A stretch of DNA of 15,183 bases from an uncultured Deinococcales bacterium (GCA_964244895.1 CAXTKV010000132.1:1-15183), one strand, 5' to 3'. Counted from the stretch's first letter, positions 405-15,021 are shown. Notes: generated by a model from the letters alone, not told the origin. Translations and numbers: made by a program.

Positions 405-1157
405 ATGCCTACCGTGGACGAAATTCGACGCGCGCAGGCCTGGGACGACCCGACCGTAGAATCCGTCGTCGTGTATGAGCCCGAGCGGCACCAATCCGAA
501 ATCATCGTGCGGGCGCTCGAGCGGCAAGGGTATCGGGTGTACGTGGCCCCGAGCGTCCGGTCAGTGCTCGATTACCTTCAGATGTACTGCCCCGACGCCG
601 TGTTGATCGGGCTCAGTGACGCCGATACGGCTGCTCGAGATGTGCTCTCGGTGATTCATCGGAGCCACGAAGTGCCCGTCATCTGCGCGGCCACCGACTT
701 CAGCACCTTCGAGTTGCAGATCGAGGCGGGCGTCAAGCCGAGCGATTTTCTGCTGAAACCGATCAACCAGAACGAGCTCGCATTTCGCGTCAACGCCGCC
801 ATCAGAACGGCGGAAGAGGCGACGAACGGCACCCGCCATCTCGAGATCGGCCCGATCAGGCTGGATCTCAGGCGCAAGCTGGCCTACGTCGGAAACGCGC
901 GCCTGAACTTGACCATGACCGAATACCGCATCCTCGAGCACCTGGGCTTTCATCGCGGCGTGATCGTCGATCGCCAGAGTCTGGCGGAGATGTTGGCGCT
1001 CCGAAGCACCAGCCAACGCATCATCGACACGCATTTCAGCAACCTGCGCATCAAACTCAGGGTTGCCGGAATCTGGGATATTCTGGAAACCGTCCGGGGT
1101 TACGGCTACCGCCTGTGGTACGAGGGCGCCAACCCCGCATTTGAAGCCAGCGCGTAA
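405..1157 (+). CDS. OmpR/PhoB-family response regulator with degenerate (pseudo-)receiver domain
   Basis: REC-like N-terminus (VVVYE..PDAVLIG..PVIC..DFLLKP) and winged-helix C-terminus (LTMTEYRILEHL, IIDTHFSNLRIKL, LETVRGYGYRL). The ORF-track TTG start at 306 lies in AT-rich promoter DNA; the real start is uncertain (ATG 363/375/405 or GTG 414). Confidence 0.85.
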   Translation: MPTVDEIRRAQAWDDPTVESVVVYEPERHQSEIIVRALERQGYRVYVAPSVRSVLDYLQMYCPDAVLIGLSDADTAARDVLSVIHRSHEVPVICAATDFSTFELQIEAGVKPSDFLLKPINQNELAFRVNAAIRTAEEATNGTRHLEIGPIRLDLRRKLAYVGNARLNLTMTEYRILEHLGFHRGVIVDRQSLAEMLALRSTSQRIIDTHFSNLRIKLRVAGIWDILETVRGYGYRLWYEGANPAFEASA

Positions 1158-1249
1158 TCCTGACGCGCCATCCTTGAGGCATCGCGGATTGGCCTGAACT
1201 TCAGGGCGTCCGCGCCGTCTGGACTATTTCACTCGAGGACGAAACGCCG

Positions 1250-1873
1250 ATGATCGCCGCGCCTCAAACGACAGATGGGCTGATCGAACTCGCCGCGCGC
1301 TTCGGTGGCCTGGTGACTCGGGCGCACATCAAGGCCGCCGGAATCCACGAGCGGGTGATCGCATCCTGGGTCAGTCAGGGCAGGATCGTTCGCCTTCATC
1401 GCGGCGTGTACCAGATCGCTGAGTTCGGTCGAGGCGCGCCGCAGACGAGCCTCGCGTCGGTGCAGTTGCGAATTCCGAACGGTGTGATCTGCCTGGAAAC
1501 GGCGCTCGCCGTACACGGAATGACCGCAGCTTTTCCCGCCGTGGTCAGCGTGGCCGTGGGCCGCACGGCGCGCGCCCCAACCATTCCGGGGGTCAGCGTT
1601 TACCGGTTCGCTCCCGGCCAGTTGACGGACATTGAGACGAGAACCCATCAGGGCGTGCCGGTGTCTGTTTTCGGCCTCGAGAAAACCCTGGTCGATCTGC
1701 TGCGTTACCGCCGCGCGCTCGGGATTGAACCGTTCTGGAGCGGCCTGAGCGCATACTTCAAAAGCGAGATGCTAGATCAGAACAGGTTGGAGGCGGTCGC
1801 GCGGGACTGCCGCACCGGGCGGATCATGCTCGAGATGATCGAAAAGCTGAACGCTCAACCCGTCAGGGTTTGA
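1250..1873 (+). CDS. AbiEi-family (type IV toxin-antitoxin) antitoxin-like transcriptional regulator
   Basis: N-terminal wHTH (GGLVTRAHIKAAGI..GRIVRLHRGVY), then GVICLETALAVHGMT and LEKTLVDLLRYR, characteristic of AbiEi proteins. GAGGA upstream. Confidence 0.85.
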   Translation: MIAAPQTTDGLIELAARFGGLVTRAHIKAAGIHERVIASWVSQGRIVRLHRGVYQIAEFGRGAPQTSLASVQLRIPNGVICLETALAVHGMTAAFPAVVSVAVGRTARAPTIPGVSVYRFAPGQLTDIETRTHQGVPVSVFGLEKTLVDLLRYRRALGIEPFWSGLSAYFKSEMLDQNRLEAVARDCRTGRIMLEMIEKLNAQPVRV

Positions 1874-1926
1874 TCGAAAGCGCCCAGATCTTTGAGCGCA
1901 ACATCGCGACTTTGAGGATCTAAATT

Positions 1927-2046
1927 CCAGAGAACACCGTCCAGGACGATGTTCTCCTGGTAAAGAAATACGCGTCCAGGACGGTCTTCCGGATCGCTCG
2001 AGCCTCAAGACTGCGCGCTGGACGGCGCTCAGCCTGGACGGCACTC
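1927..2046. repeat. REP-like palindromic repeat cluster between convergent genes
   Basis: GAGAACACCGTCC-A-GGACGATGTTCTC (1930-1956, one mismatch, flanked by CCAG/CTGG); second unit GAAATACGCGTCCAGGACGGTCTTCC (1965-1990); partial CTGGACGGC units near 2018 and 2034. Confidence 0.8.
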
Positions 2047-2512
2047 AGCGCGCGACCGCGCGAGCCTGGGCATTCGCCAGCCTGTCCGCGCGTTCGTTCA
2101 GGTCGTGCCCGGCGTGACCTTTCGTCCAGTCCCAATCGACCGCGTGGATCGCGCTCAATTCCAGCAGGCGCTCCCAGAGTTCCCTGTTCTTGACGGGTTC
2201 CTTGCTGGCGGTCTTCCAACCGTTTTTTTGCCAGCCCGCCAACCAGCGTTTGGTGAAGGCGTGCTGGACGTATTTTGAATCCGTCACGATGGTCACGGCG
2301 CACGGTTCCTTGAGGGCTTCCAGGGCGCGGATCGCGCCGGTCAGTTCCATGCGGTTGTTGGTCGTGTGGGCCTCGTTGCCGGAAAGCTCCAAGGTTTTCG
2401 ATTCGCCTTTTGAGTTGATGTATTCCAGGATTGCGGCCCACCCGCCCGGCCCCGGATTGCCCAGGCAGGAGCCGTCCGTGTGGACGATCACTCGTTTTTT
2501 GGGCGTCTGCAT
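2045..2512 (-). CDS. rnhA: Ribonuclease HI
   Basis: Motifs [61 protein letters not shown]. Confidence 0.97.
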
Positions 2513-2599
2513 CGGCGAAAAGTGTACCAGATGATTTTTTGATGCAAACTCCGTTTATTCGAGTCAGCGAGAATTGATCCGGGCGGGTAACAATGTCTG

Positions 2600-3604
2600 A
2601 TGCGTTCGCGCCCGAAATCACCGGCGTTGCGGGTGCTTTCCATCCTGAACTTGATCGGGCTGGTCGGGCTGGCGTGGCTCGAGACGGCGTTGGCGGAACG
2701 CTTCTGGCTGGTGACGGTAGTCACCTACGCGCCGCAGCATCCGCTCGGGATCGCGGCGCTCGGGCTGATCTGTTGGTCGGTGATCGCGCGCGATGCGCGA
2801 GCGGTGGCGATCAACCTGGTGGCGTTCGGGTCGATCGCGTTTTTCTTTCTGGGCCTGAACCTGCCGTGGCGAGCGCTGACCCAGAAGCCTGAAGGGACGC
2901 CGTTGCGGGTCGTGACGTACAACATTCGCAATTCTGCGGACGCGCTGAACGCCGTGCGCCACCTGAAACCCGACGTGATCTGCGCGCAGGAATCGAGCGC
3001 GTTGAACGATCCGCACCTGGGCAGGGCATCGCTGATTTCCGGGTACGGGTCGGTCACAGAGGACGAACTGACGGTCATCTCGAGGTACCCGATTCGTTCG
3101 CACCGCCTGATTCGTTTGTCGCCCGTCGAACCAGCCTCCGCGTTGCAGCCGACCAATCAAGCGTTCCTCGAGATGCTGATCGAGGTGCGTGGGAAGCCCG
3201 TCAAGGTGATCGACGTGCACGTCTGGACGCCGGATATCCTGGGGCGTTTGCCGCGCTACGAGGGTCTGGGTTTGAAGGCTCGCGTGACGCAGTTCTCGTT
3301 GAACCGCTGGGCGGAAGTGCAGCGCGTGCTTGCAGAAGCAGCTGATGGAAACGTTCCGGTGATCGTCTGCGGTGATTTCAACACGCCACCTCGGGGGGCG
3401 CTCTATGGCGCGTTGAAAACGAAGCTGACGGACGCTTTTGCGGCCTCGGGTTGGGGGTTGGGGGACACGTACAGCGCGCGCTGGCCGCTGTTGCGCATCG
3501 ATTACGTCTGGACATCGGATCGGTTGCGCGCCGTCCGGTCTTTTGTGGCGAACGATCTGCTTTCGGATCACCGGGCGCTGATCGCGGATCTGATGCTGCG
3601 CTGA
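2600..3604 (+). CDS. Membrane-anchored endonuclease/exonuclease/phosphatase (EEP) family protein
   Basis: Three N-terminal hydrophobic segments, then EEP motifs LRVVTYNI, DVICAQE, VIVCGDFNTP, RIDYVW, SDHRAL. Confidence 0.9.
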   Translation: MRSRPKSPALRVLSILNLIGLVGLAWLETALAERFWLVTVVTYAPQHPLGIAALGLICWSVIARDARAVAINLVAFGSIAFFFLGLNLPWRALTQKPEGTPLRVVTYNIRNSADALNAVRHLKPDVICAQESSALNDPHLGRASLISGYGSVTEDELTVISRYPIRSHRLIRLSPVEPASALQPTNQAFLEMLIEVRGKPVKVIDVHVWTPDILGRLPRYEGLGLKARVTQFSLNRWAEVQRVLAEAADGNVPVIVCGDFNTPPRGALYGALKTKLTDAFAASGWGLGDTYSARWPLLRIDYVWTSDRLRAVRSFVANDLLSDHRALIADLMLR

Positions 3605-3650
3605 GAACACCGTCTGGGACACGTATTTTATTCGCGTGCCGGACGGTATC
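3603..3650. repeat. REP-like inverted doublet overlapping the EEP stop codon
   Basis: GAGAACACCGTCTGGGACACG (3603-3623) and CGCGTGCCGGACGGTATC (3633-3650), imperfectly complementary arms. Confidence 0.75.
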
Positions 3651-3741
3651 GTCGAAAAGGAACGAGAAGAAACGGTGCCGCTTCTCGAGAGAAATTCGTC
3701 TCCGGGGTTCAGCGCGCACGGAAGCCTGGTAGCCTTCACCC

Positions 3742-4710
3742 ATGCGTTCCGCTCGAGCCATCGCCGTGTCCGCCGTGATGCTGATGACCGCCCTCGCTTT
3801 CGCGCAGGATGCCGCGCCCAGCGCGTTGCGGTTGCGCGCGGATCAGGGCACGGTCACGAAATACGGCGGCAAGACCGATCAGCTCAGGTTCTACGCGTTC
3901 TCGTTCGCCACCGGACCGGGCGGGGCGCGCCTGCCGGACGACCTGCGCGACAGGTTGAAGCTCGCTTTCGAGCGCGATTTCTCGGGGTCTTCCGGCCTGG
4001 ATTCCGGCAAGACGCTGACGGTGGCCAACTCCACCGAAACCATCCTGGAAGCCAGAGACGATGGATCGCGCGTCGTGCAGGTCGAATCGTACACGCAGTC
4101 AACGGGCCTGGTCGGTCTGGGCCAGACGGCGGACTCGAGCTACCTGCGCACGCACGCGCCGGATGGCGGCGTCAGCCTGGGGGACGTGAAGGTCAAGATC
4201 GAGACGGCCCAACCGTTCCTGAGCGACGAGGTGCAGAACGCGAAGATCATCGCCTCGCTCGAGCAGAGCGTCCGTTTTGGGGCGATCATTCAGGCGGAAA
4301 TTCTGACCGGCTGCTTTCAGGCCGCGCCCGGCGCGGTCAGTCCGTTGATGATCGATCCCAGACCGTTCATGCCCAGCGCAAATTCGGGCGCTGATGCTTC
4401 GGGCGCACCCGATGGTCTTCAGCCCGTCCGTCTGGGCGATTTGCGGCTCGAGCGCACCGCAGAAGGCGGTGCGGATTGCCGCGTCAGCCTGGAACCGAAA
4501 CGCTACGGTGTGGGTTCCGAAATGTACTCGTTCGTCTCGCGCCAGAGGCTGCAATTTTTGCCCGACGGTCGGGTGAACCATTCCGAATCGGTTTCCAGCA
4601 CGAGCATCAACCGCTCTGAAGCCACGGATTTCGAGTTCGAGAGCAGGATCTACCGCGTCCGCTACGCGCTGGTTTTTCGTTCTCAGGGCTCGAGCGACCG
4701 TCTGGATTGA
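3742..4710 (+). CDS. Secreted hypothetical protein
   Basis: 322-aa ORF with Sec-type signal peptide (MRSARAIAVSAVMLMTALAFA|QD). Extended -10 TGgTAGCCT (3727-3735) lies 6 nt before the ATG. No family recognised. Confidence 0.75.
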   Translation: MRSARAIAVSAVMLMTALAFAQDAAPSALRLRADQGTVTKYGGKTDQLRFYAFSFATGPGGARLPDDLRDRLKLAFERDFSGSSGLDSGKTLTVANSTETILEARDDGSRVVQVESYTQSTGLVGLGQTADSSYLRTHAPDGGVSLGDVKVKIETAQPFLSDEVQNAKIIASLEQSVRFGAIIQAEILTGCFQAAPGAVSPLMIDPRPFMPSANSGADASGAPDGLQPVRLGDLRLERTAEGGADCRVSLEPKRYGVGSEMYSFVSRQRLQFLPDGRVNHSESVSSTSINRSEATDFEFESRIYRVRYALVFRSQGSSDRLD

Positions 4711-4753
4711 GCTTCGCGCAAGCCGAAAACATGTTCTCGAGAAGGCTGACCCC

Positions 4754-4805
4754 GAGAACACCGTCCGGCACGTGGGCACATAAACGCGTGCTGGACGGTG
4801 TTTCC
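4754..4805. repeat. REP-like inverted doublet between convergent genes (possible bidirectional terminator/stabiliser)
   Basis: GAGAACACCGTCCGGCACG (4754-4772) pairs with CGTGCTGGACGGTGTTTCC (4787-4805). Confidence 0.8.
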
Positions 4806-4830
4806 GTACCGTGGAAGCCCGAGTCGGTGT

Positions 4831-5841
4831 TCAGCTCGGCGGTCCGCAACTGCCGCGTCGGATCAGCGTGCCGGGAAAGCGCTGCCGCACGACCAGTTCC
4901 AGATCGCGGCGTTCGATCGTGTCAATCACGATGTCCACGGCGGCCAGGCCCATGTCCAGGGTCGGTTGGGTGATCACGTCCAACGGCGGATCGACCAGGC
5001 TCGTCCAGGAATAGTCGTCGAAGGTCAGGAACGACACGTCCTGCGGGATTCGCGAGCCCAGTTCCTTGAGGGCGCGGAAGGCTCCGGCGGCCTCGTTGCC
5101 GGTCATCGAGAAGATCGCGGTCGGGCGCTCGGGCAGGCGCATCAGTTCCAGGGTGCGCTCGTAAGCGCTCTCCTCGCTCAAGGTCGTGCCGCGTCGGTAG
5201 GCCCTCGGGATGCGCAACCCGAAGGATTTCATGACTTCCGGGAACGCCTTGCCGCGCTCGTCCTGAAGTTTGTGCGGGTCAAAAATCGTCAGCGCCGCGA
5301 TCCGCTCGTGCCCCAGATCGTGCAGGTAGCGCACGCCCATCTCGACGCAACCCGCGTTCTCGAGCATGACGTGCGAGAACGGGCTTCCGGCCACGAAGTT
5401 ATCGATTTCCAGGATGTACGTGCCTTGCTGGTGCAGGCGGTTGAGGTATTCCAGGTTGCCCGCGCCGAAAGCGCTGCGGATGATCAAACCGCTGACGCGC
5501 TGCCCGTGGAACATCCGCAGGTGCTCGAGTTCCAGGTCGGTTTCGTACTCGTTGTCGGCCACGATCAGCGCGTAGCCTCTGGCGTGGACGGCCTTGGCGA
5601 TGGTGCGGGTCAGTTGCGCGAAGAACGGTTCGATGATGTTGCCGACCATTAACCCGATCGTCTGGCTGTGGCCGCGCCGCAGCGCTCCGGCGGTGCGGTC
5701 GGGTTCGTAGTTGAGTTCCTGGATGGCGTGTTGGACGCGTTCTAAGGTCGCGCTCGTCAAGAGGTGCGGTTCGCGGATGGCGCGTTTCGCGGTCGTCGCA
5801 GAGACCCCCGCGAGCCTGGCGACATCGTGAATGTTGGTCAC
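4831..5841 (-). CDS. LacI/GalR-family transcriptional regulator of the polyol locus
   Basis: HTH NIHDVARLAGVS, hinge YEPDRTAGALRRG, sugar-binding domain (LGHERIA, IPQDVSFLTFDD, ITQP). GTG start 6 nt after TAGAAT. Confidence 0.95.
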   Translation of the reverse strand: MTNIHDVARLAGVSATTAKRAIREPHLLTSATLERVQHAIQELNYEPDRTAGALRRGHSQTIGLMVGNIIEPFFAQLTRTIAKAVHARGYALIVADNEYETDLELEHLRMFHGQRVSGLIIRSAFGAGNLEYLNRLHQQGTYILEIDNFVAGSPFSHVMLENAGCVEMGVRYLHDLGHERIAALTIFDPHKLQDERGKAFPEVMKSFGLRIPRAYRRGTTLSEESAYERTLELMRLPERPTAIFSMTGNEAAGAFRALKELGSRIPQDVSFLTFDDYSWTSLVDPPLDVITQPTLDMGLAAVDIVIDTIERRDLELVVRQRFPGTLIRRGSCGPPS

Positions 5842-5848
5842 GTGGCCA
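5835..5848. promoter_or_regulatory. Candidate LacI operator O1 (overlaps regulator start codon)
   Basis: TGGTCACGTGGCCA, near-perfect palindrome with central CG. Confidence 0.75.
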
Positions 5849-5877
5849 TTCTAGTCACAGATTCAACTGCGGAGGGC

Positions 5878-5907
5878 TTTACAAACCCGAGAGTCATCCT
5901 GTAGAGT
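5878..5907 (+). promoter_or_regulatory. Candidate sigma70 promoter of the polyol operon
   Basis: TTTACA (5878-5883), 18-nt spacer, TAGAGT (5902-5907). The predicted start site falls inside operator O2. Confidence 0.55.
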
Positions 5908-5909
5908 TC

Positions 5910-5923
5910 TGGCCACGTGACCA
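5910..5923. promoter_or_regulatory. Candidate LacI operator O2
   Basis: TGGCCACGTGACCA, the exact reverse complement of O1. Confidence 0.75.
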
Positions 5924-6030
5924 TTACAACATCTCGGGTTGCCGCCTGTCGTTCTACGATCTAGCGGTCTGAGCCTGAAATGCGCGGCTCGAGACCCGGA
6001 AGAAGGAGTGCGGATTTCCTATCCCCACTC

Positions 6031-6046
6031 ATGGCCACGTGGCCAT
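6031..6046. promoter_or_regulatory. Candidate LacI operator O3
   Basis: ATGGCCACGTGGCCAT, perfect 16-bp palindrome. Confidence 0.75.
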
Positions 6047-6174
6047 TACCGACTGAAACGCGAAACAATCCTGAGGAGGTGAAATCCAGACAAGGCACCA
6101 CCCGCAGAACAGGGGAGAAACCGACCGAACCCACACGCATCCACAGTTCGTTCAGCTCGCTCGAGGGAGATCGC

Positions 6175-7536
6175 ATGAAATCAAAAACATTGCTTTTCGG
6201 TGGGGGACTGTTGGCCGTCGCCGGAATCGCCGCCGCGACCGTCGCGCTCGCGCAAGAGCCGACCACGATCACCATCGCCACCGTCAACAACTCCGACATG
6301 CAGACCATGGAAAAGCTCACCCCGGAGTTTGAAAAAGCCTACCCGGACATCAAGCTCAAATGGAGCGTGCTGCCCGAAAACGAACTGCGCCAGAAGCTGA
6401 CCACCGACATCTCCACCGGTGCGGGCAGCTACGACGTGGCCACCATCGGCACCTACGAAGTGCCGATCTGGGCCAAGAACGGTTGGCTCAACTCGATGGA
6501 TGCGCTCTTCGACAAGAACGCCGACATCAAAGCCTCCTACGATGTCAACGACCTGCTGACCCCGGTCAAGCTGGGCTTGTCCTACAACAAGAACCTGTAC
6601 GCGCTGCCCTTCTACGCCGAATCCAGCATGACCTTCTATAACAAGGCCGCCTTCGCCAAGGCTGGACTGGTCATGCCCGTCAAACCGACCTGGTCTCAGA
6701 TCGAAGGCTTCGCCGCCAAACTGCACAAGCCGCAGAACGGTTTCTTCGGCATCTGCTTGCGCGGGTTACCCGGCTGGGGCGAGAACATGGCGGTCTTCAG
6801 CACGATCGTCAACACCTTCGGTGGACGCTGGTTCGACCCGAAGTGGAACGCCACGCTGAACTCCCCCGCCTGGAAGGCCGCGCTGACCTTCTACGTCAAC
6901 CTGCAAAAGAAGTACGGCGCACCCGGCGCGACCGGCAACGGCTTCACCGAGAACCTGACCTACATGAGCCAAAACAAGTGCGGCATGTGGATCGACGCGA
7001 CCGTCGCCGCAGGCTTTCTGAAGGACCCCAAGCAGTCCAAGATTGTCGACACCGTCGGCTTTGCCAACGCCCCGACCGGCCCCGGCACGCCGAAGGGCAG
7101 CAACTGGCTGTGGTCGTGGTCGCTGGCCATCCCGAAGTCCAGCAAATCGGCTGACGCCGCCTTCAAGTTCATCACCTGGGCCACCAGCAAGGAATACATC
7201 GCCCTGGTCGCGCAGACCAACGGCACCTGGGCCAGCGTTCCTCCGGGAACCCGCAAGAGCACCTACGCCAACCCGGAATACAAGAAGGCCGCCGGTGATT
7301 TCGCAGGCATCACGCTCGATTCGATCAACCGCGCCGACCCGACCAACGCCACCAAGGACCCCGTGCCTTACGTCGGTGTGCAGTTCGTCGGCATCCCCGA
7401 ATTCCAGGCGCTGGGCACGCAAGTCGGACAGTACATCGCCGGAGCCCTGGCCGATCAGTATACGGTCGACCAGGCTTTGAAGCTCGCTCAGGCCGCCGCA
7501 GAGAAGGTCGCTAAAGAGGGCGGCTACAAGAAGTAA
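6175..7536 (+). CDS. smoE: Polyol (sorbitol/mannitol-type) ABC transporter substrate-binding protein
   Basis: GAGGGAG SD then ATG 6175 (the ORF-track start at 5980 is a non-coding extension). Signal peptide ending ALA|QE. ITIATVNNSDM, ENELRQKLTTDI, TIGTYEVPIWAK, LRGLPGWGENMA, WLWSWSLAIP, PVPYVGVQFVGIPEFQ match SmoE/MtlE-type proteins. Confidence 0.9.
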   Translation: MKSKTLLFGGGLLAVAGIAAATVALAQEPTTITIATVNNSDMQTMEKLTPEFEKAYPDIKLKWSVLPENELRQKLTTDISTGAGSYDVATIGTYEVPIWAKNGWLNSMDALFDKNADIKASYDVNDLLTPVKLGLSYNKNLYALPFYAESSMTFYNKAAFAKAGLVMPVKPTWSQIEGFAAKLHKPQNGFFGICLRGLPGWGENMAVFSTIVNTFGGRWFDPKWNATLNSPAWKAALTFYVNLQKKYGAPGATGNGFTENLTYMSQNKCGMWIDATVAAGFLKDPKQSKIVDTVGFANAPTGPGTPKGSNWLWSWSLAIPKSSKSADAAFKFITWATSKEYIALVAQTNGTWASVPPGTRKSTYANPEYKKAAGDFAGITLDSINRADPTNATKDPVPYVGVQFVGIPEFQALGTQVGQYIAGALADQYTVDQALKLAQAAAEKVAKEGGYKK

Positions 7537-7544
7537 GGCCCTCA

Positions 7545-7574
7545 GGGATGCTCGAGCGACCGCTCGAGCATCCC
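7545..7574 (+). terminator. Strong hairpin after the binding-protein gene (mRNA stabiliser or attenuator; no U-tract)
   Basis: GGGATGCTCGAGCG-AC-CGCTCGAGCATCCC, perfect 14-bp inverted repeat 8 nt after the stop codon. Confidence 0.7.
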
Positions 7575-7850
7575 GCCCTCCGCTTCCCTCGATTCAAACC
7601 AGCCCCTCGCGTTCTCGAGAGCGGATCGGTTCCACCAACCCCACTCGCAAACACCATCTGCGACGATGCCGACTGAACCCGTTCAGCGCGCCATCCTGGC
7701 GGGTGAACAGACCTTCGGCTCGAGCCACGAACGCGGAGTGCGCCCAAAACGGGCCTCGGCGTGCGCGTCAAACTGTCCGCTTCAACGCCACCGGGTTCAT
7801 CAGACGCCACATAAATCAAGAATTCAGATGCTCAACGCTCGAGGTCGATC

Positions 7851-8777
7851 ATGACGCTGAAACCAGCCCTGAACCGTTCGGCAACCCAGAAATCGGGGCG
7901 CACCTCGAGCCTACCAGCCTTCTTGTTGCTGCTCCCAGCGCTCGCGTACCTGATCCTGACCACGCAAGTCCCATTTTTGATGACGATCTACTACAGCCTG
8001 TTCCGTTACAGCCTGGTCGATCCGTTGCGCCGTCCGTTTATCGGCCTGGAAAATTACGTGAGCCTGTTTACCGACCCTCTTTCGGTTCCGGTTTTGATCA
8101 ACACCCTGGTGCTGGTTTTGAGCGTGATCGGGTTGACCGTGCTGCTCGGGCTGGGGCTGGCTTTGTTGTTCAACCGCAGGTTTTTTGCCCGGAACCTGGC
8201 GCGCACCTTGTTGATCGGACCGTTCTTCGTGATGCCGGTGATCACCGCGCTGATCTGGAAAAATTCGCTCTATAACCCCGTGTACGGTCTGTTCAGCGAA
8301 GTCGCGAGGGCTGTCGGGCTGCCCGCGGTTGACTGGCTGGCCAAATTCCCGATGCCTTCGATCGTCGCCATGGTGACCTGGGAATGGACGCCTTTTGCCA
8401 TGCTGATCATGCTGACCAGCTTGCAATCCTTGCCGCAGGATCAACTCGAGGCCGCGCGTCTGGACGGTGCGAACGGCTTTCAGGAATTCCGTTTCATCGT
8501 GCTGCCGCACCTGTCCAAAGCGGTCGAGGTGATCGTGCTCCTGGAAGCCATTTTTATTTTGCAAATCTACGGCGAGATTTACATCGCCACCAGCGGCGGC
8601 CCCGGACTGGCCACGACCAACTTGCCGTACTTTATTTTTCAGAAAGCCTTCGCGGAGTACAGCATCGGCATGGCTTCGGCGGCGGGCGTGTTCGCGGTGA
8701 TCCTGGCGAACATCGTGACGGCCTTTTTCTTGCGGTTGGTGAACCGCAACGTCAACGTCAGGGTGGTGCCCCAATGA
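7851..8777 (+). CDS. smoF: Polyol ABC transporter permease (MalF-like)
   Basis: Multiple TM segments, EAA loop (EAARLDGA), WEWTPFAMLI, TSGGPGLATTNLPY. GAGG upstream. Confidence 0.9.
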   Translation: MTLKPALNRSATQKSGRTSSLPAFLLLLPALAYLILTTQVPFLMTIYYSLFRYSLVDPLRRPFIGLENYVSLFTDPLSVPVLINTLVLVLSVIGLTVLLGLGLALLFNRRFFARNLARTLLIGPFFVMPVITALIWKNSLYNPVYGLFSEVARAVGLPAVDWLAKFPMPSIVAMVTWEWTPFAMLIMLTSLQSLPQDQLEAARLDGANGFQEFRFIVLPHLSKAVEVIVLLEAIFILQIYGEIYIATSGGPGLATTNLPYFIFQKAFAEYSIGMASAAGVFAVILANIVTAFFLRLVNRNVNVRVVPQ

Positions 8778-9610
8778 TCAGGAAGAGTGCTCAAAACCCG
8801 TGGTTGATCGCCAAGAACGTCGGTCTGGGTACGCTCGCCTGGGTGATCGCGTTGGCGTTTTTCTTCCCGATCTTCTGGATGTTCCTGAGCGCCTTCAAGA
8901 CCGAAGATCAGGCGTTTCAAACGCCGCCCGTGATCTTTTTCCAACCGATCCTGGACAATTTCGTTCACGCCTTCGCCAAGTACGCTCCGGCCTTGCGCAA
9001 TTCTTTGGTGGTGGCTTTCGGCTCGAGCCTGATCGCGTTCACCCTGGGCATTCCGGCGGCCTTTTCGATGGCGTTCTACCCGACCCAGCGCAGCCGTGGG
9101 ACGCTGTTGTGGTTCGTTTCGACCAAGATGATGCCGCCCGTCGGCGTGATCGTGCCGCTGTACCTGATCTTCAAGGATTTGCACCTGCTGGACACGCTTT
9201 TGGGATTGACGCTGATGTACACCACGATGAATTTGCCGCTGGTGGTCTGGATGATGCATTCGTATTTGTCCGAAATCCCGCCGGAAATCCTGGAGGCGGC
9301 CCGCGTGGATGGCGCGAGCTTGCGCCAGGAATTTCTGAACATCGCCATGCCGCTGGCCGCGCCGGGCATCGCTTCGACGGCGTTGTTGTGCCTGATCTTC
9401 GCGTGGAACGAGGCGTTTTTCGCGTTGAACCTGACGAACATCGACGCTGCGCCATTGTCCGTTTACGTCTCGAGCTTCAAGACCTCCGAAGGTCTGTTCT
9501 GGGCGGGTCTGTCGGCGGCGGCCACGCTGGTGATTTTGCCGGTGATGGCTTTCGGCTGGTCGGCGCAACGCCAGCTCGTGCAGGGCCTGACGATGGGCGC
9601 GGTCAAGTGA
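8774..9610 (+). CDS. smoG: Polyol ABC transporter permease (MalG-like)
   Basis: Start at ATG 8774 (ATGA overlap with the previous stop). FFFPIFWM..FKTE, STKMMPPVG, EAARVDGA, AWNEAFF, SEGLFWA, QLVQGLTMGAVK. Confidence 0.9.
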   Translation: MIRKSAQNPWLIAKNVGLGTLAWVIALAFFFPIFWMFLSAFKTEDQAFQTPPVIFFQPILDNFVHAFAKYAPALRNSLVVAFGSSLIAFTLGIPAAFSMAFYPTQRSRGTLLWFVSTKMMPPVGVIVPLYLIFKDLHLLDTLLGLTLMYTTMNLPLVVWMMHSYLSEIPPEILEAARVDGASLRQEFLNIAMPLAAPGIASTALLCLIFAWNEAFFALNLTNIDAAPLSVYVSSFKTSEGLFWAGLSAAATLVILPVMAFGWSAQRQLVQGLTMGAVK

Positions 9611-9665
9611 GCGGGCCGGTCGTGGAGCAGGCGTCAGGTATCAGAGGTGATCCGAGATCGATGCG

Positions 9666-9729
9666 TGGGAACACCGTGCTGGACGGTCTTTTGAAAAACA
9701 CGAGAACATCGTCCAGCACGGTGTTCCCA
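9666..9729. repeat. REP-like inverted doublet (BIME/REPIN-like) inside the operon
   Basis: TGGGAACACCGTGCTGGACG (9666-9685) is the exact reverse complement of 9710-9729, and each unit is itself an imperfect palindrome. Confidence 0.85.
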
Positions 9730-9748
9730 ATAGAAAGAGGAACCAATC

Positions 9749-10774
9749 GTGTCTGAAACCATGCGGGCTGCCGTCATCACTGCGCCCGGAGAACTCGAGA
9801 CCAGGGCCTTCGCCGTGCCGCACGCGGGCGCTGGTCAGGTGCGCATCAAGGTCGCGGCCACCGGCGTGTGCGGTACGGACCTGCACCTCCTGCACGGCGC
9901 GTTCGGCGCGCAACTGCCGCTCGTGCCGGGTCACGAGATCGCGGGCGTGATCGATCAGGTCGGGCCGGGCGTGCTGGAACTCCACGAGGGCGACCGCGTG
10001 GCGCTCGACCCGGTCATCAGTTGCGGTCAGTGCCACCACTGCCAGCGCGGAATGCGCCACCACTGCCTGCGTTACCAGGCGCTCGGCGTGACCCGCGCGG
10101 GCGGCTTCGCGGAGTACGTGGTCGCCCCCGCCGAGAACGTCTACACCATCGGCGACCTGAGCCTGGAAGTGGCCTCCTTCGCGGAACCCCTGGGCTGCAT
10201 CGCCTGGGGCATGAAGCGCCTCGAGCCAGCGCCAGCCTCCAAGGTCTTGCTGTTCGGCGCTGGCCCGATCGCGCTTTTGTTGATGCAGGCATTGATCGCC
10301 TCCGGCGCCAGCCAGGTCACGGTCGTGGAACCCAACGCGGAACGCCGACGGATCGCCCTGGCACTCGGCGCGAGCCGCACCCTGGACGCTGGCCCCGATT
10401 TGAGCGTCCAACTGCTCGACCTCGAGCCTTACGGTTTCGACATCGTGACCGAAGCGACCGGATCGCCGCGCGTGGTCGAGGGCATGCTGCAATACGCCGC
10501 GCCCGGCGGCAAGATCATGATTTACGGCGTCGCCCCGGAAGAAGCCGTGGTGCAGTTCAGCCCCTACGAGATCTTCCGGCGCGACCTGACGGTGATCGGC
10601 AGTTTCTCGCTCTTGGGAACCGTTCCCATCGCGCTCGAGTGGTTGCAGGCCGGGCGCGTCAAGGTCGAACCCCTGATCACGCACCGTCTGCCCATCGAGG
10701 AACTCGGGCGGGCGCTGCGCTACAAGGACAACCCTGGACTCGAGGGTTCGCAAAAGGTTTTGATCGTGCCCTGA
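9749..10774 (+). CDS. Zinc-dependent medium-chain (polyol) dehydrogenase
   Basis: GVCGTD, PGHE, structural Zn motif CGQCHHCx7C, GAGPIA. GTG start with AGAGGA SD. Confidence 0.92.
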   Translation: MSETMRAAVITAPGELETRAFAVPHAGAGQVRIKVAATGVCGTDLHLLHGAFGAQLPLVPGHEIAGVIDQVGPGVLELHEGDRVALDPVISCGQCHHCQRGMRHHCLRYQALGVTRAGGFAEYVVAPAENVYTIGDLSLEVASFAEPLGCIAWGMKRLEPAPASKVLLFGAGPIALLLMQALIASGASQVTVVEPNAERRRIALALGASRTLDAGPDLSVQLLDLEPYGFDIVTEATGSPRVVEGMLQYAAPGGKIMIYGVAPEEAVVQFSPYEIFRRDLTVIGSFSLLGTVPIALEWLQAGRVKVEPLITHRLPIEELGRALRYKDNPGLEGSQKVLIVP

Positions 10775-10792
10775 GGGAAGAGCCACTTGTAT

Positions 10793-10851
10793 AGAATATC
10801 GTCCGGCACGCCACGCTCGAGAATCAGGAAACACCGTCCGGGACGGTTTCC
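10793..10851. repeat. REP-like units
   Basis: AGAATATCGTCCGGCACG (10793-10810) and GGAAACACCGTCCGGGACGGTTTCC (10827-10851), with CTCGAG (10816-10821) between them. Confidence 0.75.
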
Positions 10852-10930
10852 TTGAAGCCCAAAGACATCACAACATCAAACGCACAATTCCGTCGGCCAC
10901 GTTGACGCCACCCTCGACGAGGAGAACCCC

Positions 10931-11686
10931 ATGAGCGCACCCAATTACGCACTGCACGACCAGATCGCCATCGTCACCGGCGGCGGGCGAGGCATCGGAT
11001 TCGAGATCGCCAGGGCGATGCGAGGCTCCGGCGCGCGCCTCGTGATCGCGGAAGCCGACCCCGGCGTCGGAGAGAGCGCCGCCAGGGAACTGGACGGCCT
11101 GTTCGTGCAGACCGATGTGACCGATTCGGCCTCCGTGCGCCGCATGATCGAATCGGTTGTGGCCGAGCACGGACGGATCGACTGCATCGTCAACAACGCG
11201 GGCATCTGCCGCAACACCCCATCAGAAGATGTCACCGACGACGAATGGCGATTGGTGATGAGCGTCGACCTGGACGGCGTGTTCTACTGCTGCCGCGAGG
11301 CCGCAAAGGTCATGCTGGCTCAGGGTTCGGGCAGCATCGTCAACATCGGTTCCATGTCCGGCATCATCTCCAATAGGCCGCAACCGCAATCCGCCTACAA
11401 CGCCGCCAAAGCGGGCGTGATCCACCTGACCAAATCCCTGGCGGGGGAATGGGCTTCGCGCGGCGTGCGCGTCAACTGCATCAGCCCCGGTTACATCGCC
11501 ACGCCGATGACCAAACAGGGACTCGAAACCCCCGAATGGCGCGAGACCTGGCTTTCCAGCACCCCGATGGGGCGGCTCGGTGAACCCGTCGAGGTCGCGG
11601 CCTGCGCGGTCTTTCTGGCCAGCCCCGCCGCCAGCTTCCTGACGGGCAGCAACATCGTGGTGGACGGAGGTTACACCTCATGGTGA
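10931..11686 (+). CDS. SDR-family oxidoreductase, polyol dehydrogenase/ketose reductase type
   Basis: TGGGRGIG, NNAG, SMSGIISNRPQPQSAYNAAK (YxxxK; the NRPQ segment is typical of galactitol/mannitol dehydrogenase- and sorbose reductase-like SDRs), VDGGYT. GAGGAG SD. Confidence 0.92.
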   Translation: MSAPNYALHDQIAIVTGGGRGIGFEIARAMRGSGARLVIAEADPGVGESAARELDGLFVQTDVTDSASVRRMIESVVAEHGRIDCIVNNAGICRNTPSEDVTDDEWRLVMSVDLDGVFYCCREAAKVMLAQGSGSIVNIGSMSGIISNRPQPQSAYNAAKAGVIHLTKSLAGEWASRGVRVNCISPGYIATPMTKQGLETPEWRETWLSSTPMGRLGEPVEVAACAVFLASPAASFLTGSNIVVDGGYTSW

Positions 11687-11695
11687 GCGCGGAAT

Positions 11696-11723
11696 CGCGG
11701 GTCGGGGGTCGCGGGTCACGGGT
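11696..11723 (+). repeat. Short tandem heptamer repeat
   Basis: CGCGGGT CGGGGGT CGCGGGT CACGGGT. Confidence 0.6.
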
Positions 11724-11762
11724 AAGAATCAGGGTGTTCTCGAGCGTGAGGGGTGAAGGTCT

Positions 11763-12839
11763 GTGAGCGCGGCTCCTGAAAACATGAACGTGGCCGTCAT
11801 GCACGGCATCCGGGACGTGAGACTCGAGACGCGCGCCGTGCCGAAGCCAGGCCCACGCGATGTGCTGGTCAAGATCGAACGCGTGGGCGTGTGCGCGTCG
11901 GATGTTCACTACTACACGCACGGACGGATCGGGCATTACGTGGTCGAGAAGCCGCTCGTGCTGGGCCACGAATCGGCAGGCGTGATCGCAGAAGTTGGAA
12001 GTGAAGTCACGAGCCTCAAGGTCGGTGACCGGGTCAGCCTGGAACCCGGCCACACCTGTCGGCGCTGCTACCACTGCAAACGCGGGCGCTACAACCTCTG
12101 CCCGAACGTGACCTTCATGGCCACCCCGCCCGTGGACGGCGCGTTCCTGGAATACATCACCTGGCCGGATGATTTCGTCTTCAAGATTCCCGATTCCATG
12201 AGCCTGGACGCGGCGGCGTTGCTCGAGCCGCTGGCCGTGGGCGTCTGGGCTGCCAAGCGCGGCGATGTCGCCATGGGCAGTTCCGTGGCCGTCTTCGGGG
12301 CTGGCCCGATCGGCTGCACGACCCTGCAAGCCGCCAGAGCCGCAGGCGCGACCACGATCATTGCCGTGGACATCATCGCGTACAGGCTCGATCTGGCCAG
12401 GGAACTCGGCGCGACCCACACCATCAACGCCAGAGAAGAAAACACCCTCGAGCGCATCCGCGAGATCACCGCGCCGTTAACCGGACTGCCGCACGCCAGC
12501 GCTGGGGTGGACGCCGCCTTTGAGACGGCGGGCACGCTCGAAACCTGCCGCACGACCATCCTGGCCACGCGCACGGGCGGGGTCGCCATACTGGTCGGAT
12601 TGCCGCCGGACCCGCTGGTCAGCCTGGACATCGTGGCCGCGGCCAGCCGTGAGGTGGACATTCGCGGGCAGTTCCGCTACGCCAACTGCTACCCCGCAGC
12701 GCTCGATCTGGTCGCCACGGGACGCGTCAACCTGGACAAGATGATCACGCACCGTTACCCGCTGGCTCAGGCCGGTGACGCCCTCGAGTTCGCGGATCGC
12801 GAGCGCCAATCCATGAAAGTCATGGTCGAAATCGGCTGA
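11763..12839 (+). CDS. NAD-dependent sorbitol (L-iditol 2-)/xylitol dehydrogenase-like MDR enzyme
   Basis: [63 protein letters not shown]. Start is GTG 11763 or ATG 11784. Confidence 0.93.
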
Positions 12840-12966
12840 ACTCCGTTCTGGACGCGGTTTCTTGAAGATACAAAACTAGCGTCCCGGACGGTGTTCTCGA
12901 GGTTAGAGGAATACCGTCTGGGACGTTAAATTTCATTTTTGACTCGTCTGGAACGGCGTTCTCGAG
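12838..12966. repeat. Four-unit REP-like array at the end of the polyol operon
   Basis: Units at 12838-12861, 12880-12901 (CGTCCCGGACGGTGTTCTCGAG), 12908-12925 (GGAATACCGTCTGGGACG) and 12945-12966 (CGTCTGGAACGGCGTTCTCGAG). Confidence 0.8.
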
Positions 12967-13013
12967 CTTCCCAGCTTCAGCTCGAGCATCCACAGACGCG
13001 CTAGAATGCACCC

Positions 13014-13385
13014 ATGGCCGTCAAAAAAAGCACTGAGAATTTTGAAATAGACATCAACAAGGACGTGCTGATCGGCATCGCGGGCATCGCGCTCGAAGGT
13101 GTCAAAGGCGTCACACCCGTCACGCCACCCGTCAAAGTTGGTGAAGTGCTGGCGGGCAAACGCCTCAAAGGCATCAACGTCAACCGCGACGGCAACAACC
13201 TGACCGTGGATCTGACCGTCAACGTCGATTACGGCCTCGAGATTCCCAACGTCGCCCGCGAGGTTCAACGCTGCGTCGCCGAGAACATTGAAGTCATGAC
13301 CGGACTGAACGTCAAAGCCGTCAACGTCACCATTCAGGGCATCGTCCTGCCAAATGAACCCAGCAAAGAGAACGCGAATGCCTGA
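13014..13385 (+). CDS. Asp23/Gls24-family envelope stress protein (YqhY-like)
   Basis: INKDVLIGIAGIALEGVKGV..VDLTVNVDYGLEIPNVAREVQ..MTGLNVKAVNVTIQG. Conserved position upstream of nusB. TAGAAT lies 6 nt before the ATG. Confidence 0.9.
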   Translation: MAVKKSTENFEIDINKDVLIGIAGIALEGVKGVTPVTPPVKVGEVLAGKRLKGINVNRDGNNLTVDLTVNVDYGLEIPNVAREVQRCVAENIEVMTGLNVKAVNVTIQGIVLPNEPSKENANA

Positions 13386-13914
13386 AAGCACCGACCCCGC
13401 CCTAAACGCGCCCAAACGCAACACCGCCGGAGTCCGCCGCCGCGCCCGAGAACTCGCGTTCCGCGTGCTGTTCGAATCCGAACAGGGCAACGGGACAATC
13501 AGCGACGCCTGGGATCACGCCATGACGGAATTCGCGCCCCGAGACGGCGCGCCTGCAACCCGAGAAACCCGCAAGGAACCCCGATCCCGAGACGACGAAT
13601 CGAGCAACGAAGCCCTGGATGCCGAAGGGATCGCCTTCGCCCACCGGCTGGTGCTGGGCTTCGACGACAAACGTTACGACGTGGATCAGACCTTGGAGCG
13701 CGTGATCGAAGGCTGGACGTTCGGTCAGATGTCCAAAACCGACCTGACCGTGCTGCGGCTGGCCGGGTTTGAAATGATGTTCGACACCACCCCGCACCCG
13801 CCCGTCATCGAAGTCGCCGTGCGGATCGCCAAGAAATACGGCGGCGAGGAATCCGGAAAGTTCGTGAATGGCGTGCTGGCGAGGTTAAAGAAGCACCTCG
13901 AGTCCAATCTGTAG
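13378..13914 (+). CDS. nusB: Transcription antitermination factor NusB
   Basis: RRRARELAFRVLFE, GWTFGQMSKTDLTVLRLA, VIEVAVRIAKKYGGEESGKFVNGVLARL. ATG 13378 overlaps the asp23 stop (the ORF track uses 13354). Confidence 0.95.
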   Translation: MPESTDPALNAPKRNTAGVRRRARELAFRVLFESEQGNGTISDAWDHAMTEFAPRDGAPATRETRKEPRSRDDESSNEALDAEGIAFAHRLVLGFDDKRYDVDQTLERVIEGWTFGQMSKTDLTVLRLAGFEMMFDTTPHPPVIEVAVRIAKKYGGEESGKFVNGVLARLKKHLESNL

Positions 13915-13916
13915 GA

Positions 13917-14273
13917 TCAATTCCACTGATCGAAAAATGCTTTTGAGTTCGGGCCAAGATAAGGCTCCACCGTCGCCGAGAGTTCTCCCTCACCTGCGAT
14001 GTTCTCAAGAAAGCAAGTGCAAGCGGCGGTATCAAGATCGACATTTGAATTACTCACGCACTGTTCGATAAGTGAGAACAGGGCGAGGAGTTGATATTCG
14101 CTGGTTTTCGAGAAGGATTCCCGAATGTATTGGGTGAATTCCAAGAACAGCCCACAAAACGTGAACGCTCCATCCGGTTTCATGAAGAGGTTATTGTCTT
14201 GCGCCCATTGAATTGCAAAGTCTGGAAATATTGCCGAGAGGTGCTCGAGAATAGTTTCTGGGTTGACTCGCAT
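13917..14273 (-). CDS. Small low-GC hypothetical protein (possible DUF7674/immunity-like helical protein)
   Basis: 118-aa ORF filling the nusB-def gap, with AT-richer codons than its neighbours. C-terminal AACTCFLENI..YLGPNSK motif. CATACT lies 6 nt before the ATG. The family name is from memory, unverified. Confidence 0.75.
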   Translation of the reverse strand: MRVNPETILEHLSAIFPDFAIQWAQDNNLFMKPDGAFTFCGLFLEFTQYIRESFSKTSEYQLLALFSLIEQCVSNSNVDLDTAACTCFLENIAGEGELSATVEPYLGPNSKAFFDQWN

Positions 14274-14332
14274 ACCTCAAGTATGCCCTGGATTGCGCTT
14301 GACCACACCAACCACGATTTCTTTCCACCTTC

Positions 14333-14361
14333 AAAAACCTGTCTGGGACGGTCTTCTCGAG
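14333..14361. repeat. Single REP-like unit
   Basis: AAAAACCTGTCTGGGACGGTCTTCTCGAG matches the family consensus and ends in CTCGAG. Confidence 0.7.
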
Positions 14362-14415
14362 ACTCCAATCCTTGATACTGCGTTTTGGTCAATGTCCAGG
14401 TAAACTCTAACGCTG

Positions 14416-15021
14416 ATGATCCTGCCCATTCGACTCTACGGCGATCCCGTGCTGCGCCAGAAGGCGCGACCCGTGACGGATTTTTCCGACATCCCGAAAC
14501 TCGCACAGAACATGCTGGAAACCATGTTCGACGCGCACGGCGTGGGCATCGCCGCGCCGCAGGTGGGTTTGCCGATCCGTCTGTTCGTGGCCGTGGAATT
14601 CAGCGACGATGAACCCGAGGGAGAGCAGGCCGAGGAATCCGACGAACCCAGGTCTCGGGTGCTGAACGAGTTCGTGGTGGTCAACCCGGTGCTCGAGGTC
14701 TTGCAGCGCGGTCCGGTGGAAGGTCTGGAAGGTTGCCTTTCGATTCCTGGCATCTACGAAGAAGGCGTGCCGCGCGCTCAAGCGGTGCGTGTGCGCTACC
14801 AGAACGAGCGCGGCGATCACAAGACCATCGAGGCCGAGGATTACCTGGCGCGGGTGTTCCTGCACGAGTTCGATCACCTGGAAGGGAAGTTGTTCCTGGA
14901 TTACTTGCCGCGCGAGGTCGTGAATGTTCATCGCGATGATTTGACGGAAATGCAGCGCAAGGCAAAGGCCTTCTTGAAAGAAGAAAAAGACCGCGAGAAG
15001 GTCTTGAAGGGCAAGCGTTGA
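14416..15021 (+). CDS. def: Peptide deformylase
   Basis: Motifs GVGIAAPQVG, EGCLS, HEFDH. Confidence 0.97.
   Translation: MILPIRLYGDPVLRQKARPVTDFSDIPKLAQNMLETMFDAHGVGIAAPQVGLPIRLFVAVEFSDDEPEGEQAEESDEPRSRVLNEFVVVNPVLEVLQRGPVEGLEGCLSIPGIYEEGVPRAQAVRVRYQNERGDHKTIEAEDYLARVFLHEFDHLEGKLFLDYLPREVVNVHRDDLTEMQRKAKAFLKEEKDREKVLKGKR

Follow-up and report, generated by a model that had tools for sequence, protein, structure and literature searches.

DNA uptake sequences and uptake signal sequences (DUS/USS) of Neisseriaceae and Pasteurellaceae are asymmetric words, longer than the one described here, that occur about once per kb and for which an uptake bias was shown experimentally. Chi sites, which are read by RecBCD and AddAB, lack symmetry, follow the direction of replication and show no more than mild over-representation. 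For about thirty years highly iterated palindromes have been a puzzle of cyanobacteria, and a second case independent of them would make the phenomenon a general one. According to the accessible part of one study, sites of the cyanobacterial palindrome HIP1 are conserved between genomes beyond background and show periodicity at 10-90 kb (PMC5861425); the accessible parts of two further reports state that HIP1 sites raise natural transformation (bioRxiv 10.1101/2024.09.10.611283; PMC13756078). Here we describe the hexamer CTCGAG in a stretch of 15,183 nucleotides from an uncultured Deinococcales bacterium (GCA_964244895.1 CAXTKV010000132.1:1-15183), referred to below as the window. The window is contig C132 of its source genome, G000 (328 contigs, 5.12 Mb, GC 62.7%, longest contig 66 kb, 91% complete). 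CTCGAG is a highly iterated palindrome in the broad sense in this genome; a link to methylation is unproven.

The window contains exactly 50 copies of CTCGAG (3.3/kb), the first at 516 and the last at 14692 (516-14697). In 200 dinucleotide-preserving shuffles the mean was 6.3 copies (sd 2.6, maximum 15), and none of the 200 reached 50. The preliminary description, made from the sequence of the window, had counted about 50 by hand; the count and its coordinates were correct and the excess is real. Genes were mapped with our own caller based on open reading frames (ORFs) and codon usage and checked against Pfam, which placed 34 copies in coding and 16 in intergenic DNA. The earlier figure of about 17 intergenic copies was therefore off by one, and the presence of the word between genes stands. 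The density was 6.3/kb in noncoding DNA (about 2.5 kb) against 2.7/kb in coding DNA (about 12.6 kb).

As a whole, the genome carries 21,883 copies of CTCGAG, one per 234 bp (4,270 per Mb). All 272 contigs of at least 5 kb contained it at 1.6-8.2/kb (median 4.26), and there were only six CTCGAG-free stretches of 2 kb or more. The observed-to-expected copy ratio (O/E) was 12.8 at order 0, 9.1 and 9.8 under Markov models of order 1 and 2, and 3.4 and 1.25 at orders 3 and 4. Loss of the excess under a fourth-order Markov model, under a codon-preserving null or outside the window had been named beforehand as grounds for refuting it. The fourth-order value comes formally close to such a loss but is no refutation, because 21,883 of the 30,712 CTCGA/TCGAG pentamers (71%) lie inside CTCGAG sites, so that this null is conditioned on the very signal under test. 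With codon usage preserved, the O/E was still 4.3, and the excess is genome-wide and family-wide. The runner-up among palindromic hexamers is GAATTC (O/E 3.45), and 39 of the 64 palindromic hexamers have an O/E under 0.5, indicating that the genome otherwise strongly avoids palindromes. Avoidance was extreme for CGGCCG (30 copies, O/E 0.006), CCCGGG (60), GGGCCC (129) and ACTAGT (10), and all hexamers containing CTAG were near O/E 0.03. The most over-represented hexamer that does not overlap CTCGAG was TGATCG/CGATCA (11,304 copies, O/E 5.5), and TGATCA had an O/E of 3.0. The top 40 octamers included no palindromic octamer without CTCGAG; the abundant word of this genome is CTCGAG and not the HIP1 octamer GCGATCGC.

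For the codon-preserving null, synonymous codons were shuffled within 3,763 called genes (23 with N were dropped), so that each protein and the codon usage of each gene were kept. Coding DNA contained 14,679 copies where 3,418 were expected, and the O/E by frame was 3.6 for CTC-GAG, 14.2 for xCT-CGA-Gxx and 6.8 for xxC-TCG-AGx. Since CTCGAG has already inflated the codon usage on which this null relies, the null errs on the conservative side. Among 17,473 Leu-Glu pairs, 59.4% were written CTCGAG, against 10.5-14.8% expected. The rare codon CGA accounted for 51.5% of Arg codons where the neighbouring bases complete CTCGAG, 24% with 5' CT alone and 7-10% otherwise. Leu-Glu was itself the most over-represented dipeptide (O/E 2.14, against 0.98 for Glu-Leu). 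In a comparison across taxa that used crude ORF picking, its O/E was 1.00 in 20 Deinococcus loci, 0.76 in other taxa, 2.13 in 187 kb of a relative and 2.48 in other loci of the family. Short gaps between called genes (1,897 gaps of 30-300 bp, 277 kb, GC 57%) held 2,225 copies, or 8.0/kb (O/E 26), which is twice the coding density; convergent gaps had 9.45 copies/kb, tandem gaps 8.28 and divergent gaps 5.76. The preliminary description had held that the word occurs in all frames and that Leu-Glu usage is insufficient to explain it, and both statements are confirmed by the excess in all three frames and between genes. The results show that the pressure acts on DNA, independently of codon usage, and that it reshapes proteins.

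The sequence around the sites is nearly free of information. Flanking positions contained at most 0.12 bit each over 21,860 sites, and likewise over about 7,000 sites outside called genes, and showed a slight preference for G in front of the word and C behind it. A dispersed repeat of the repetitive extragenic palindrome (REP) or miniature inverted-repeat transposable element (MITE) type was considered and rejected, as no extended consensus surrounds the bare hexamer. Gaps between sites in G000 were near-exponential (mean 231, median 163, coefficient of variation 0.96). When pair distances were searched for fixed spacing or pairing, the only features were a period of 3 from the codons, too few pairs closer than 12 bp and a minor peak at 7 bp, and no helical phasing was seen. 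The 20 borders of 13 low-GC islands were not nearer to CTCGAG than random positions (median 90 vs 72 bp).

The nearest named records are entries titled 'MAG: Deinococcales bacterium' (MAG, metagenome-assembled genome), with 82-92% protein identity for the binding protein of the transporter in the window; cold-habitat Deinococcus species reached about 70% for this protein. All 18 other sampled genomes of the family, from four further genera, contained 4.6-6.8 CTCGAG/kb, and G000 is the lowest at 4.27. This agrees with the earlier guess of a Deinococcota lineage. A weaker form of the excess occurs elsewhere in the order. The same word is kept in family members whose GC in the aligned block is about 45-60%, against 62% in G000. 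At the orthologous locus, 10 Deinococcales MAG loci held 283 copies in 60 kb (O/E 19) and 21 Deinococcus/Deinococcaceae loci held 9 copies in 151 kb (O/E 0.2). In an order-wide draw of 121 genomes, the excess was present in all 11 genomes of the family of G000. The Deinococcus-like family had 0.013-0.27 CTCGAG/kb in 31 of 31 genomes (37-1,193 copies per genome), and three other families had 0.3-3.4/kb. Compared with its reverse GAGCTC, CTCGAG was no commoner in one genus and 5-29 times commoner in others. The family of G000 is thus the extreme of a graded order-wide trait and stands beside a family that avoids CTCGAG. No description of CTCGAG hyper-abundance in Deinococcota was found in the literature searched, most subscription journals lying outside the reach of that search. 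Among viral contigs, at least 130 stretches carried three CTCGAG within 90 bp. The densest of the 80 examined were high-GC contigs also rich in GAGCTC, with 5-7 CTCGAG/kb plus 27-69 GAGCTC per 10 kb, and five stretches with little GAGCTC had no similarity to G000. The excess in the high-GC contigs looks codon-driven and unrelated to the family of G000.

The part of the window from 4701 to 12900 was aligned with syntenic blocks of 11 relatives. In pairs of congeners, identical sites were commoner for CTCGAG than for control hexamers: 276/322 (86%) against 51% at 88% identity, 260/349 (75%) against 31% at about 80% identity, and 32/69 (46%) against 20% at 73% identity. A further pair (27.4 kb) had kept 127/143 and 127/160 of its sites (84% overall), against 49.6% for controls. 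The old conserved site at 9794-9799 is common to 10 of the 11 aligned relatives, across four other genera, and the sites at 8445, 10421 and 12222 are each common to 9 of the 11. Of the 126 site columns in the aligned block, 66 are present in one genome alone. One such site, at 10220-10225 in an alcohol dehydrogenase gene, is confined to G000; all 11 aligned relatives have Leu-Gln at this position, and the site cost a Gln-to-Glu change. The alignments show that CTCGAG sites are maintained and are still being gained. Across genera, G000 was compared with the single-contig relative G006 (69 orthologue pairs, 64 kb, 67% identity). At conserved Leu-Glu pairs, G006 writes CTCGAG in 55 of 112 cases when G000 does and in 25 of 70 when it does not, and each lineage therefore largely re-creates its own sites. 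Protein sequence flanking the sites fell short of the mean conservation of its gene by 4.2 points (n=253, p=9e-5), and the trend of gene-level conservation with sites was not significant (rho -0.17). This is consistent with an accumulation of CTCGAG where proteins tolerate change. The solute-binding protein gene, in which amino-acid changes were polarised with 20 Deinococcus orthologues, provided only 9 site columns, a number insufficient for use, and the alignment of G003 with G009 contained no aligned intergenic sites.

What kind of force maintains the word can be judged from these data in part. A by-product of protein and codon preferences, that is, of Leu-Glu-rich proteins and of the codons CTC and GAG, would account for the 71% of coding sites that are CTC-GAG, and high-GC phage contigs, among the stretches examined, do reach 5-7 CTCGAG/kb where GAGCTC is also abundant. 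This explanation is already refuted by the intergenic and off-frame excess and keeps next to no probability: the intergenic density is twice the coding density, off-frame sites are 7-14 times over expectation, Glu-Leu is not enriched, GAGCTC has an O/E of 0.33 in G000, and the Leu-Glu excess is absent from the Deinococcus orthologous loci. Biased repair of single mismatches, of the very-short-patch type, would turn one near-site into CTCGAG. In enterobacteria, such repair is a classical cause of a mild excess of methylated words, and where a site and the congener allele differed by a single base, 18 of the 24 differences were transitions. These 24 differences fell on all three half-site positions, however (8/6/10). 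Of the nine pairs of one-off neighbours of CTCGAG, none was depleted except the pair containing CTAG; outer-position variants were enriched (1.4-3.65), and the T-variants had O/E values of 1.27 (CTTGAG/CTCAAG) and 3.65 (TTCGAG/CTCGAA). A 4,096-state HKY substitution model at the GC of G000 predicted that making one mutational route into the site 50-400x faster would raise the site only 2.1-2.3x and empty that neighbour to 0.02-0.15, so that such a drive would be capped at about 2.3x. A fixation bias of scaled strength 2.6 for the whole site would raise it 13.4x and leave the neighbours at 1.00. An origin by repair of this type was rejected because of the neighbours, the model and the lack of a detected Vsr or C5 methyltransferase in G000; it is close to refuted, and we assign it a very small probability. 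The suggestion in the preliminary description that methylation-directed repair generated the sites is disfavoured with it. The data point instead to selection or to a conversion- or uptake-type drive on the intact word, both of which fit them alike.

We therefore lean towards the reading that CTCGAG is maintained by a bias for the intact six-base site, either by selection or by a recombination-linked drive acting through a recognising protein. All routes leading into the site would be favoured and all those leading out of it disfavoured, the scaled strength being about 2.6 across the genome. Because CTCGAG is a short perfect palindrome, its reader would be a symmetric protein that binds or modifies double-stranded DNA. 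As the role of the word we tentatively prefer the marking of own DNA during DNA exchange, by uptake or homologous recombination, in which site-bearing alleles would spread; this proposal follows mainly from the analogy with HIP1 and uptake sequences and is put forward as a possibility. It is also possible, although we would place less trust in it, that CTCGAG is a family-wide self-recognition word for DNA exchange which is read by a symmetric protein and which the sister family Deinococcus restricts. Several points weigh against a bias for the intact site. The spacing is near-Poisson (variance/mean 0.98 in 1-kb windows, in addition to the gap statistics above) and no required spacing is evident. 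The cross-genus signal is weak, with 60 of 247 sites (24%) shared between G000 and G006 against 16% of controls, and off-frame sites in this pair were no better than controls (1/9 and 4/34; in the reverse direction 1/52 and 4/38). Within one genus, 8 loss-like and 0 gain-like changes were counted in the window block under a strict rule, although the numbers are small. No CTCGAG-recognising protein was identified, and the role in DNA exchange rests on analogy. In the model each hexamer is a locus independent of the others and the HKY rates are uniform, and the gene calls were home-made and cover about 75-79% of G000.

Candidate readers were sought in G000 with the Pfam families Eco57I, N6_N4_Mtase, C5 DNA_methylase, N6_Mtase, D12, XhoI nuclease and Vsr, and the gene calls were screened for the motif [DNS]PP[YFWH], which gave 43 matches, 20 of them run against Pfam. 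The recognisable DNA methyltransferases were a BREX-1 PglX, whose presence in relatives was not compared, a type I HsdM with an HsdM_N domain, whose neighbourhood suggests a type I operon, a beta-class N6/N4 enzyme of 329 aa, a D12-class enzyme and a DUF6094 enzyme. The beta-class gene lies together with two ORFs of no known family in a low-GC island (C114:10540-12700; 2.2 kb, about 40-42% GC) without CTCGAG, one of the six CTCGAG-free stretches mentioned above; its only close homologue among the relatives is 59% identical and is found in G008. The HsdM, beta-class, D12-class and DUF6094 enzymes were each sporadic, occurring in few relatives only. Neither a C5 methyltransferase (PF00145) nor Vsr (PF03852) was found in G000, which is 91% complete. 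It is the sole genome of the family without a C5 match, such enzymes being present in 18 of 18 relatives. The C5 enzymes of the relatives were considered as a shared partner of the word and rejected, as those examined were unrelated restriction-modification modules. Two that were compared are 28% identical and one of them adjoins an NgoPII-type nuclease; the single C5 enzyme of G006 lies in an island of 35-40% GC. No PF01555 match was found in G006. The XhoI-family nuclease profile had no match in G000, but it had none in any control genome either and says little. The preliminary description had linked the word to a DNA methyltransferase of the HIP1 type and had called for a search for a cognate orphan enzyme; that search, within the limits of a 91% complete genome and of known enzyme families, found none shared across the family among the four enzymes tested, and the proposed tie is so far not supported. 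GAGCTC, the reverse of the word, had 568 copies in G000 (O/E 0.33) and 0-161 copies per 2.3-5.7 Mb in the 18 relatives. This pattern, together with the lack of a C5 enzyme in G000, looks like a restriction system against GAGCTC that was lost by the lineage of G000. At C76:2572-3882, a single frame of 437 aa encodes both a release-factor methyltransferase of the PrmC type (N-terminal domain and MTS) and a RuvX Holliday-junction resolvase domain.

The survey bears on three other explanations of what the word does. If the word were coupled to methylation, as has been suggested for HIP1, CTCGAG or its TCGA core would be the target of an orphan methyltransferase and selection would keep the sites; the mark would serve strand choice in mismatch repair, replication or regulation. 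We regard both the coupling and these uses of the mark as doubtful. HIP1 co-occurs with two orphan methyltransferases in the accessible part of one report (PMC4390886), and CTCGAG and TCGA are listed among the methylated motifs of hot-spring metagenome genomes in that of another (bioRxiv 10.64898/2026.06.24.734251). TCGA is enriched in G000 (O/E 3.1; 1.8 outside CTCGAG), being nested in the longer word like GATC inside HIP1, and G000 is only 91% complete. Against this, the four methyltransferases of G000 that were tested are all sporadic (PglX was outside the test), two enzymes of the genome belong to defence systems with other site types, no C5 methyltransferase was found in G000 and those of the relatives include unrelated modules, and G006 is without a PF01555 match. 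CTCGAG could also be an orientation-free signal similar to Chi, at which an AddAB-type helicase-nuclease would stop degrading and load RecA, thereby protecting own DNA. An AddB-like and AddA-like helicase-nuclease pair is indeed present in G000, at C128:11513-15257 continuing at C123:2-1831, with the AddA gene split by the contig break; a Pfam PDDEXK_1 search had missed it. Among the four non-avoiding families, 10/11, 31/32, 15/15 and 30/31 genomes had an AddB-like gene, against 3/31 (weak matches) in the avoiding family. This is a single phylogenetic contrast that does not follow density inside families, and the density of the word varies between 0.3 and 6.8/kb among the families with AddB. 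In one genus of these families CTCGAG is no commoner than its reverse, and the three avoiding genomes with an AddB-like match keep ordinary low counts (302, 349 and 419). A Chi word has no symmetry and is read on a single strand, a poor fit to a palindrome, and this explanation appears the least probable of the three. A third possibility is an architectural site, bound by a dimer of a family-specific nucleoid protein that would compact the chromosome or organise it. In its favour, CTCGAG is palindromic, occurs at very high density, is conserved and is present in all genomic contexts, and HIP1 periodicity has been linked to chromosome structure in the accessible text of PMC5861425. The Poisson-like spacing, pair distances with a codon period of 3 and no helical phasing, and the lack of a candidate protein make such a site improbable, if less so than a signal of the Chi kind.

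In the window, the genes are ordinary and include a response regulator, RNase H, a LacI-regulated sugar ABC transporter, dehydrogenases, NusB and peptide deformylase. By the gene map, 25 of the coding sites are in the CTC-GAG (Leu-Glu) frame, at 516, 840, 933, 1676, 1829, 2678, 3167, 4258, 4447, 5359, 5524, 6160, 8445, 9794, 10220, 10421, 10634, 10739, 11823, 12222, 12447, 12783, 13236, 13897 and 14692. Two sites, at 634 (Ala-Arg-Asp) and 3752 (Ala-Arg-Ala), use the rare Arg codon CGA in the xCT-CGA-Gxx frame (634-3757), and seven are in the xxC-TCG-AGx frame, at 3079, 4134, 4689, 5988, 7904, 9022 and 9469 (3079-9474). The two codon examples given earlier, GCT-CGA-GAT at 634 and ATC-TCG-AGG (Ile-Ser-Arg) at 3079, had been read correctly. 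The 16 intergenic sites are located at 1232, 1997, 3684, 4736, 7551, 7563, 7614, 7719, 7838, 10816, 11739, 12896, 12961, 12981, 14244 and 14356 (1232-14361). Just past the stop codon of the gene for the solute-binding protein lies a 14-bp inverted repeat without mismatches (7545-7574; loop of 2 nt), which has one CTCGAG in each arm, at 7551 and 7563; the former site is common to 5 of the 11 aligned relatives and the latter to none. The spacer that contains the repeat is 314 bp long and has five CTCGAG. Judged by its sequence, the repeat may be a hairpin within an operon.

A second hyper-abundant word, ACGGTGTT/AACACCGT, had 2,926 copies in G000 (O/E 24.7). ACGGTGTT belongs to inverted pairs of the form AACACCGTCC ... 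GGACGGTGTT at varying distance. With at most one mismatch, GGACGGTGTT had 14 matches in the window against 1.1 expected, and the second word is located at 1933-1988, 4757-4802, 9670-9725, 10830-10839, 12886-12895 and 14346-14355. At 12886-12901 (+ strand) a copy of GGACGGTGTT is directly followed by CTCGAG, and a one-mismatch copy has the same arrangement at 14346-14361. Genome-wide, 377 of the 2,926 copies of ACGGTGTT (13%) are directly followed by CTCGAG.

If CTCGAG is a self-recognition word maintained by a bias for the intact site, as proposed above, the drive would have rewritten intergenic DNA and thousands of Leu-Glu positions, and the phenomenon of HIP1 would have had an independent second origin. 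The case brings a different word in a different phylum, lacks an obvious partner methyltransferase and has a sister family in which the word is avoided. The contrast between the sister families is a natural handle for finding the responsible gene, and the graded excess in other families (2-3.4/kb) suggests that cultured relatives may allow tests. In practice, CTCGAG distorts codon and dipeptide statistics and inflates high-order Markov backgrounds. It also provides an easy marker with which to bin these genomes and to recognise DNA that was acquired recently.

Compared with the known systems, CTCGAG is closest to HIP1 and its alternates in cyanobacteria, which the accessible parts of PMC4390886 and PMC5861425 describe as clade-wide, hyper-abundant short palindromes that are genic and intergenic, conserved and of unresolved function. 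In the same parts of these sources, as in G000, one-off variants are least common at central positions and the genome otherwise avoids palindromes. CTCGAG occurs at 4,270 per Mb, HIP1 at 300-2,700 per Mb, and the fold excess is 12.8 for CTCGAG and 55-228 for HIP1, although the two word lengths make neither figure directly comparable (PMC4390886; PMC5861425, accessible parts). CTCGAG differs from HIP1 in having 6 bp and not 8, in its phylum, in its Poisson-like local spacing and in that no co-distributed methyltransferase was found. CTCGAG shares other traits with the uptake sequences: it is a family-level word of core DNA, occurs in several frames, is tolerated by peptide change, is rarer in recently acquired DNA and is explicable by molecular drive without benefit to the cell. 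Unlike them it is palindromic and denser. Like Chi, which marks own DNA for recombinational repair, CTCGAG is an over-represented word in a genome with an AddAB-like pair, but it is palindromic and 13-26x over-represented. The avoidance of restriction sites of the XhoI/PaeR7I type concerns the very same word; the sister family shows the avoidance that would be expected, and the family of G000 shows the opposite sign.

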